From a virus, in IMG/VR virus record IMGVR_UViG_2932017207_000003, positions 1,193-65,192 of that record: a stretch of DNA of 64,000 nt. One strand, 5' to 3'. The notes below the pieces were generated by a model. It made no database searches. It saw nothing but the letters and a program-made list of their open reading frames with translations, and was not told the DNA's origin. Both the position numbers and the translations under genes were made by a program. Shown in pieces: positions 60,479-61,894 of this stretch. Positions within the stretch are counted from its first letter, which is position 1. Every line of letters begins with the position of its first letter.

Positions 60479-61482
60479 CCGACACGATCAACACGTACGC
60501 CGATCCGGGCTCGGATCCCGCGCACGAGTGGGGTGCGGGGAAGCCTGAGTGGACAATCCGCGTTGGCGACTCCACCGTCACGCCTGCATCGCTGCGGGCA
60601 CACGCGGACCACATGGAGCGGCGATCACCGGGCAGCATCACCGCTGAGCAGTTGCTGCAGGAGGCCGCCCGTCTGGAGGCTGAGTCTGCCCACGACGAGG
60701 AGGCGGAACGGTACGCGAAGGTGCAGAACGCTGCCGAATGCGCCGTCTTCCCTGGCGCCTGGATCCCGTTCGACGAGACCGGGCCGAATCATCGGAAGAC
60801 GATCCTAGCTGGCGTCCGCGCTGTCCTGGATCAGCTTGCGGCTGATGGGCGTCTACTCCCCGAAGGCGAAGAGCGAACCGTCTACGACGAGACGACGCTG
60901 CTGCGGGTTTATGACGGCCTGAAAGATGCCGGGGTGTCAGGCAAGACGGCAGTGAACGCGGTGACGCAGATGCAGAACCAGGGCATCCTGTTCCGCCAGT
61001 CACCCGTCACCCCGCCTGCTGTGTCTGTCCCGCTGGAGCTTCCGACGGAGCCGGGCTCTCGGATCAGGGCATCGGTGAAGCGGTGGGGATCCGCGCTTGA
61101 GTGGGCTGCGACTGACCCGTACGTGGACACGTTCACGCTTGGCGGCCGCTGCTGGGAAGCGGAGAACGATTCGCTAGTGGTTGGCACGTGGAACCGCGAG
61201 TACATCACCGTGCTCGAGGTGCTGCCTGCTGTGTCTGTCCCGGACAGCGGGCCGGATGGCACACCGGAGAAGCCCTGGGAGACAGCAGCAGAGGTGCCCG
61301 CCGGTGTGAAGTACGTCAGCCGGGACAGCCACTGCTATGGCGGCTTCGCGTGGATCAACGAGGCCGGCAAGCAGCGTTGGCTCGAGCTGGGTACTGGGAG
61401 TTCCTGGCCGACTCTAACTGTCACCGATCTGGAGTGGGCAGACCTCGCCCCGTTTGTGCGCGTGGACGGAGACAAGCGGTGA
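60475..61482 (+). CDS. Multi-module hypothetical protein
   Basis: 335 aa; PAVSVP repeated twice; ends VDGDKR. Confidence 0.65.
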   Translation: MTDTINTYADPGSDPAHEWGAGKPEWTIRVGDSTVTPASLRAHADHMERRSPGSITAEQLLQEAARLEAESAHDEEAERYAKVQNAAECAVFPGAWIPFDETGPNHRKTILAGVRAVLDQLAADGRLLPEGEERTVYDETTLLRVYDGLKDAGVSGKTAVNAVTQMQNQGILFRQSPVTPPAVSVPLELPTEPGSRIRASVKRWGSALEWAATDPYVDTFTLGGRCWEAENDSLVVGTWNREYITVLEVLPAVSVPDSGPDGTPEKPWETAAEVPAGVKYVSRDSHCYGGFAWINEAGKQRWLELGTGSSWPTLTVTDLEWADLAPFVRVDGDKR

Positions 61483-61484
61483 GC

Positions 61485-61688
61485 ATGCAGTACATCCGCG
61501 ACTACTACCGAGTGCCGGCCAAGCGTGGTGCCCGAATCGTGTACCGCGAGTTCGGCCCCCGCCAGGAAGGCGTGATCGTCGGATCGTGCGATCAGTACCT
61601 CCGGGTCCGTTTCGACGACAACCCAGGGCTCATCGAGACCGTGCACCCGACATCCGGAGTGACCTACGTGGACGGAGACAAGGCATGA
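61485..61688 (+). CDS. Conserved small phage protein
   Basis: YIRDYYRVPAKRG.R.....G.I.G....YLRVRFD...HPT. Confidence 0.7.
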   Translation: MQYIRDYYRVPAKRGARIVYREFGPRQEGVIVGSCDQYLRVRFDDNPGLIETVHPTSGVTYVDGDKA

Positions 61689-61894
61689 GCGGCTACGAGT
61701 ACCGGATCGAGTACACGATCTTGCGCGCACCCGAGGGCTCCGACGACTTTGTGGAGGTCGGGTTTGGGTCGAGCGGATCGTCGACGGACCTCAACTCCGC
61801 TGCATACGACCTCGACTCGCAGGTGCAGAACCGGATGTGGGAGACCGAGCCGGGGATGCCGGACCCGAATGATGTGGACGGAGACAAGGCATGA
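61685..61894 (+). CDS. Hypothetical protein
   Basis: 69 aa, ends VDGDKA. Confidence 0.6.
   Translation: MSGYEYRIEYTILRAPEGSDDFVEVGFGSSGSSTDLNSAAYDLDSQVQNRMWETEPGMPDPNDVDGDKA

Follow-up and report, generated by a model that had tools for sequence, protein, structure and literature searches.

We analysed a 64,000-nt stretch of DNA (hereafter, the window) that forms part of a 71,654-bp provirus record in IMG/VR. Towards its right-hand end lies a run of small, translationally coupled genes, g1 to g7, and the first three of these genes end in the same short sequence, which we call JB. The exact 15-mer GTGGACGGAGACAAG occurs on the + strand at 61462-61476, 61668-61682 and 61874-61888, with start-to-start spacings of 206 and 206 nt, and every copy is in frame at the 3′ end of a gene. 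The genes and repeat copies concerned are listed here by position (here and below, a peptide given as a gene end runs up to the stop codon).

60475-61482, + strand: g1, 335 amino acids (aa), phrog_24393, ending VDGDKR
61443-61482, + strand: JB copy 1, the full island of ~40 nt, comprising the last 12 codons of g1, a GGAG and the GTGA overlap with the start of g2
61479-61688, + strand: g2, 69 aa, phrog_2730, a cassette gene ending VDGDKA
61668-61688, + strand: JB copy 2, 21 nt, the 3′ part of the island only, comprising the g2 tail, a ribosome site and the ATGA overlap with the start of g3
61685-61894, + strand: g3, 69 aa, a cassette gene of a separate family with 58 homologs, ending VDGDKA
61874-61894, + strand: JB copy 3, 21 nt, comprising the g3 tail, a ribosome site and the ATGA overlap with the start of g4
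61891-62187, + strand: g4, 98 aa, phrog_1810/419, ending ..FAQTYEEAEGGRS (junction JE)

Copies 2 and 3 have 21 nt in common, ending GCATGA, and copy 1 runs on as CGGTGA; copy 3 amounts to 22 nt if the preceding T is counted, as in relatives. At each copy, a GGAG stands 7 nt upstream of the next start codon, and that start overlaps the preceding stop as GTGA or ATGA (RTGA). A first-pass annotation, made from the letters of the window, had described an identical sequence at 61462, 61668 and 61874, the last two copies reaching GCATGA, three unrelated proteins that all end VDGDK(R/A), and a repeat that supplies the ribosome-binding site and coupled start of the next gene. All of this is borne out: the match on the + strand is exact, the terminal residue is R in g1 and A in g2 and g3, and the protein families differ. 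Three JB matches, with up to two mismatches allowed, occurred in 0 of 100 dinucleotide-preserving shuffles (shuffle mean, 0.31). The three copies lie within 433 nt; there is no fourth copy of GTGGACGGAGACAAG in the window at ≤2 mismatches and no additional JB copy in the rest of the 71.6-kb record. No inverted repeat involves any JB copy and none has an attC-like structure, promoter and terminator prediction placed no such site at the copies, and Rfam returned no known RNA family, its sole match being a meaningless sub-threshold long non-coding RNA elsewhere.

The tails of the two cassette genes are foreign to their families. The most likely start of g2 is the GTG at 61479, which gives the family N terminus MSMQYIR; the family core stops at ..GVTY, and the VDGDKA tail derives from JB. 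The g2 family has members in cluster A mycobacteriophages, Pseudomonas phages and others, and these stop at ..EYL, precisely the point at which g2 runs into JB. For g3, the family core ends WETEPGMPDP and is followed by variable native tails, often x(E/D)VD... Searches of g3 against the phage collection with tblastn gave no match, and g2 peptide patterns found no relative in IMG/VR. Both genes have 69 codons, so the spacing of the repeats is exactly 206 nt.

Related loci were collected by scanning IMG/VR for JB, which gave 13 loci, and GTDB, which added Prescottella equi, Rhodococcus sp. OK519 and a contig of a metagenome-assembled genome (MAG). Individual loci carry L numbers, and for those with JB on the minus strand (L005, L008, L010-L012 and L014-L016) coordinates refer to the reverse-complement orientation. 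We anchored 15 loci on JB and computed the mean pairwise identity of each column. JB is the 3′ part of an island of ~40 nt (..LAPFVRVDGDKA): in every locus, ..GCCCCGTTTGTGCGT followed by JB and GCATGA closes the g1 homolog (..APFVRVDGDKA). Column identity is 0.85-1.0 from -18 to +21, and 0.26-0.35, the random level, in both flanks. Upstream of the island, the last ~60 residues of g1 vary between loci, and downstream of it almost every locus has a different next gene. Most relatives have a single JB copy.

The island is carried by Prescottella (Rhodococcus) equi phages and prophages, including REQ2, REQ3 and IMG/VR proviruses. The JB pattern alone gave ~8 GTDB matches in unrelated taxa, against ~17 expected by chance for its 18 specified bases, and the full island matched only Prescottella/Rhodococcus and the MAG contig, L032. 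L024, from the unrelated actinobacterium Kribbella deserti, also has all 21 nt of JB up to and including GCATGA, without a mismatch, at an apparent gene junction (reverse-strand position 5880), but it lacks the part of the island that lies upstream of them; ~0.3 such chance matches are expected in the collection, and this one may be a coincidence.

We chained the coupled open reading frames (ORFs) in all loci and clustered their products into families. The loci have a common scaffold order: a slot-0 gene, g1 (family F0), slot 1, g7 (family F1) and further variable genes. The scaffold gene g1 is present in all 15 loci and conserved across the phage family, with a conserved N-terminal part, a variable C-terminal stretch of ~60 aa and a conserved tail (LAPFVRVDGDKR). 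Slot 1, between g1 and g7, contains 0-5 genes, and its occupants belong to 17 distinct families in 13 loci, only two of which were seen twice; the left edge of the slot is the JB island and the right edge is a second island at the start of g7 (MSTAEQII). This turnover, together with an indel of g3-g6 in L035 whose left edge lies in the repeat, corresponds to the gene gains and losses at the repeats for which the first-pass annotation had proposed to look; gene order in the slot, far from being fixed, differs at almost every locus.

Segments on either side of an island have, to judge from these alignments, independent histories. The slot-0 gene of the window is 94% identical in nucleotides to that of L006, and nothing is shared after the second copy of another junction repeat, JA. 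L008 and L009 have a slot-1 cassette in common and differ in slot 0 and downstream; L003 and L011 have slot 0 in common, but not slot 1. The same gene family can be found in different slots with slot-specific tails, as with g4 and gene 0 of L010 and also with family F2: the tail is ..FAQTYTEETR in the g4 homolog that occupies slot 0 of L010 (37% identity, E 2e-16). In REQ3, L012 and L025, a homing-type HNH endonuclease ORF (HNH_3, zf-His_Me_endon) takes the place of the variable C-terminal part of g1 and nevertheless ends LAPFVRVDGDKA. We also observed that homology between the window and L006 ends just past JA copy 2 and the first g1 codons, and that the HNH gene at L002 3470-4225 (REQ3 Orf23) splits g1 after ..TPEKPW and inherits the g1 tail.

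An arrangement close to the parental state is found in L035, a P. equi prophage in which the order is a g1 homolog with the full island, g2, a g7 homolog, WhiB and SSB. Window positions 61441-61689 are 90% identical to L035 in nucleotides, and the L035 g2 (P0060) is 94% identical. Because L035 proceeds from g1, island and g2 directly to g7, genes g3-g6 are four extra genes in the window. The L035 g2 ends VDGSAA, and its tail matches JB only in GTGGACGG and GCATGA, with 7 differing bases between them, which places the left breakpoint inside an 8-nt overlap of the gene's own tail and JB. Native tails of both cassette families already match the beginning of the island, over 8 nt in the g2 family (GTGGACGG) and over 6 nt in the g3 family (GTGGAC, the V-D codons).

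Two other loci contain duplicated islands. L010 has 2 JB copies that share 31 nt, lie 430 nt apart and surround two genes, and L032 has 2 copies that share 25 nt, lie 263 nt apart and surround an 88-aa gene. With left breakpoints that differ, both duplications are evidently independent of those in the window.

L035 could be taken for the product of a simple deletion, from JB to the further junction JC, of a window-like parent; we rejected this because the 7 central bases of its tail differ from JB. At L035 5187-5225, the g2 tail (..GACGGGAGCGCGGCATGA, then GTACCGCGGAACAG) is an apparent patchwork of JB-like and JC-like pieces, which suggests repeated events within the junction itself. The gene inside the JB duplication of L032 (795-1078 of a 2.7-kb MAG contig) is cysteine-rich, and the next gene encodes an SPPY motif, which by motif alone is typical of N4/N6 DNA methyltransferases.

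JB copies 2 and 3 are probably what offset crossovers at short homologies left behind when they stacked cassettes at a conserved boundary sequence. Two successive single crossovers would have taken place between phages or prophages that were collinear, resident together and out of register when they paired, with the tail of a resident cassette gene pairing with the island of the partner genome: the native g2 tail (..VDGSAA) via GTGGACGG, and the g3-family tail (x(E/D)VD) via GTGGAC. In each event the resident cassette would be kept, its last codons fused in frame to the island and the partner's cassette placed behind it. The island would be duplicated as a result, and every gene would retain a ribosome site and a coupled start. 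Direct repeats of this kind, once formed, could in turn allow deletions or additional exchange. The catalyst could be host recombination or an annealing protein of phage origin.

Local exact repeats are not confined to JB. A search for exact repeats of ≥14 nt that lie <500 nt apart showed that they cluster at 60.1-63.3 kb as five families: JA (2 copies; 60103 and 60462), PAV (2 copies; 61014 and 61224), JB (3 copies), JC/JC2 (3 copies; 62185, 62376 and 62552) and JD (3 copies; 62884, 63086 and 63309). All five are conserved in relatives, and a coverage profile of 14 loci on the window showed conservation there to be limited to islands of 20-45 nt, plus a few inside g1 and g7. Each of JB, JA, JC and JD extends across a stop/start overlap, and PAV is placed at a domain boundary within g1. 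The positions of these repeats and of the remaining genes are as follows.

60103-60119, + strand: JA copy 1 (AGGAGACCCAGCGATGA), closing the gene upstream of slot 0
60116-60478: slot-0 gene, DUF7432 (the only Pfam match among the array genes)
60462-60478, + strand: JA copy 2, closing the DUF7432 gene and overlapping the g1 start
61014-61032, + strand: PAV copy 1, a 19-nt in-frame repeat inside g1 (PAVSVP)
61224-61242, + strand: PAV copy 2, which with copy 1 flanks a 70-aa in-frame insert
62173-62198, + strand: JE/JC junction, the g4 tail GGRS and then the g5 start MSAEQK
62184-62378: g5, start MSAEQK
62375-62551: g6, start MSTAEQK
62376-62393, + strand: JC2 copy 1, at the g6 start MSTAEQK
62551-62919: g7, scaffold gene (family F1), start MSTAEQIIAEH, which anchors the variable slot on its right in all relatives
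62552-62580, + strand: JC2 copy 2, at the g7 start MSTAEQIIAEH
62884-62900, + strand: JD copy 1 (GCGGAGGGCGGTGAGCG), in the g7 tail ..AEGGE
63086-63102, + strand: JD copy 2
63309-63322, + strand: JD copy 3

JA, PAV, JC and JD evidently behave like JB. The 70-aa insert flanked by PAV is absent from most relatives and present in L010. As PAV is internal to g1 and in frame, the phenomenon is independent of gene boundaries and translational coupling. PAV has the same stacking signature as JB at the level of a domain, within one gene. Genes g5, g6 and g7 (62184-62580) start alike (MSAEQK, MSTAEQK and MSTAEQI), with exact repeats of 14-18 nt, and in L009 and L014 a JC-type start directly follows JB, making the two one contiguous junction. 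The sequence GCGGAGGGCGGTGA occurs three times in 62884-63322, at or near the ends of consecutive genes (..AEGGE/AEGGD), and the JD repeat is also present in 2-3 copies in L003, L005 and L011.

Array genes match only PHROG families of unknown function, and Pfam and PHROG scans of these genes and their neighbours detected no recombinase. Among the leftward genes upstream of the array and the L022 ORFs to its right, Pfam matched only RNase_T and RusA. Base skew and ORF orientation both flip at ~59.9 kb, which makes the array the beginning of a rightward operon. Among database phages, the closest are the Rhodococcus equi phages REQ2, REQ3 and ReT1v, which match in short pieces only. What the window has in common with REQ2/REQ3-type phages (genomes of 39-57 kb) is confined to positions 59900-64650, the rest of the provirus being almost unmatched against the relatives fetched; the array thus behaves as a module that moves between otherwise dissimilar phages of one host.

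Several points weigh against offset crossovers at short homologies. The evidence is all comparative and consists of scars, no recombination event having been observed, and the identical 206-nt spacing is explained only by two cassettes of equal length. No RecT, ERF, Rad52/Sak, Sak4 (AAA_24) or YqaJ gene was detected in the whole 71.6-kb record; L035 has a faint RecT match upstream. Conservation of the island at synonymous sites could reflect a function at the RNA or DNA level, such as translation coupling. The founding microhomologies are only 6-8 nt, and because they are so short, illegitimate, homology-independent recombination with selection for intact ORFs and coupling is the main rival for the founding events and could yield the same products. 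The extra copies would then be passive by-products with no role as joints, and the island would be conserved as a functional C terminus of g1 and as the translation signal of the next gene. Left breakpoints that differ between events (15/16, 22, 25 and 31 nt) and the negative search for an annealing recombinase agree with such an origin, as does the ribosome-binding site needed in the last codons of each previous gene, which constrains the tails (KETR, GGRS, GGDQP and PKEAS). Illegitimate joining predicts no conserved boundary sequence, however, and across 15 loci whose flanks are unrelated a sharp island of ~40 nt hardly varies at synonymous sites. JA, JC2 and JD are conserved too, likewise PAV, which is internal to a gene and has no role in translation, and the HNH gene of REQ3 carries a g1 tail that its own function does not need. 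We regard it as unlikely that illegitimate joining produced the copies, or that the island is conserved for such reasons alone.

Very improbable, in our estimation, is a dedicated system in which the locus is turned into a true cassette-capture array by a site-specific recombinase or by a homing endonuclease whose cuts near JB create a hot spot of double-strand breaks. Slot diversity is extreme, and an HNH_3/zf-His_Me endonuclease gene lies directly upstream of JB in REQ3, L012 and L025, its ORF ending with the island; an HNH gene at JB could raise local exchange in those members. Yet the array of most loci, that of the window included, contains no endonuclease or recombinase gene, no motif other than GGAG recurs in all five junction families, JB forms neither an inverted repeat nor an attC-like structure, and the position of the breakpoints varies. 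A slightly different proposal, that the five islands form the functional parts of a dedicated locus for cassette exchange, borne by phages and integron-like without an integrase, seems quite improbable; we give equally little credence to its corollary, that the scaffold is invariant so that accessory genes swap fast between co-resident P. equi phages. On that proposal, the swapped genes might be defence or counter-defence genes, and the driver might be the homing-type HNH endonuclease at JB in some members or a specific annealing protein. There is a slim chance that JB is instead a regulatory element, either an operator- or stoperator-like protein site or a site of RNA processing or translation control. 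Its nucleotides are conserved beyond what the peptide needs and it is positioned at ribosome-binding sites, but three copies within 433 nt are all that the 71.6 kb contain at ≤2 mismatches, most relatives are single-copy, neighbouring junctions differ in sequence, and no Rfam, promoter or terminator signal accompanies it; the number of the copies and where they lie led us to reject the stoperator-like version. Duplication in tandem of a 206-nt unit (one small gene) that then diverged until only the ends were alike would account for the equal spacing of 206/206 and the equal length of 69 codons, and is hardly credible. The in-register identity of the 191-nt segments between repeats is 0.34, where circular shifts give 0.27 ± 0.04 (maximum, 0.37); g2 and g3 come from two separate protein families that each have homologs elsewhere, and L035 has g2 without g3. 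This background identity, the separate families and g2 standing alone effectively refute tandem duplication. A transposable element with target-site duplication was rejected as well: each insert is one ordinary phage gene that has homologs elsewhere, inverted repeats are lacking, and repeat lengths vary (15/16, 21/22, 25 and 31 nt) where they should be fixed.

Offset crossovers at a conserved boundary sequence relate the locus to a model that is already established (Susskind & Botstein 1978; Clark et al. 2001 (HK620); cited in PMC3029335 refs 21-22). As with the boundary (‘linker’) sequences of lambdoid phages, a short sequence is conserved between phages with unrelated flanking modules, and such sequences have been proposed as sites of homologous exchange that keep gene order and expression intact. 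Here, a conserved island stands between unrelated flanks at gene and module boundaries, and different modules are joined there. The locus differs from lambdoid linkers in its actinobacterial hosts, in having at least five islands within 3.2 kb together with within-genome tandem copies that record cassette stacking, and in the position of the islands within coding tails and heads, which follows from the overlap of the genes by RTGA. Taken together, these features identify the locus, on comparative grounds, as a fresh and unusually clear example of known boundary-sequence mosaicism.

The first-pass annotation had gone further, proposing that the boundaries act as recombination joints, that they let cassettes be exchanged without breaking translational coupling, and that the whole resembles a cassette array without an integrase. 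Variable slots, the L035 indel and the L010 and L032 duplications favour the joints, although copies 2 and 3 seem to have arisen by offset crossovers and not to have been joints beforehand. Coupling is indeed kept at each JB copy, but PAV inside g1 shows that it is not essential. The likeness to a cassette array extends to its outline, and the established boundary-sequence model covers it without a new cassette system. Integron arrays, too, have single-gene cassettes in one orientation, repeated joints and expression from an upstream promoter; here there is no integrase, no attI, no hairpin attC and no implied circular intermediate, and the joints are coding. The locus is not an integron.

A close precedent is the gp67/gp68 region of phage Island3, in which an extra small gene repeats the upstream gene's C-terminal residues over ~50 bp (Pope et al. 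2011, PMC3029335); its authors favoured recombination between short repeats, akin to the boundary-sequence model. Island3 offers one duplication in one phage pair, whereas here there are 3 copies in a row, of 15-21 nt, with 15 relatives and 17 alternative cassettes. Phage recombinases recombine diverged sequences and short homologies (De Paepe et al. 2014, PMC3945230). Annealing recombinases would offer a mechanism for phage-prophage exchange that likewise leaves traces of homology at mosaic borders; unlike in those cases, none was found in this record, and their involvement here is putative. Relaxed homologous recombination by such enzymes was reportedly described by Martinsohn et al. in 2008. 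Stoperators, 13-bp repressor sites at gene boundaries of cluster A mycobacteriophages that Brown et al. are said to have described in 1997, are also short, asymmetric repeats in one orientation. They number ~20-30 copies genome-wide with one consensus, whereas JB has 3 copies within 433 nt and neighbouring junctions use other sequences. One published Rhodococcus phage survey makes no mention of the repeats reported here.

Phage mosaicism has long been debated as the outcome either of homologous exchange at short boundary sequences or of random illegitimate joining followed by selection (PMC3029335, PMC3945230), and clear boundary sequences are said to be absent from most mosaic joints. For automated clustering and annotation, the islands are a trap, as they explain why numerous small genes of these phages have identical heads or tails. 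With a culturable host and three isolated phages, REQ2, REQ3 and ReT1v, the model is directly testable by crosses. This locus is an unusually clean natural case, in which invariant islands of ~20-45 nt separate segments of independent history: one slot has received 17 alternative cassettes, tandem island copies preserve the order of the stacking events, and the near-parental arrangement of L035 pins one breakpoint to an 8-nt overlap.

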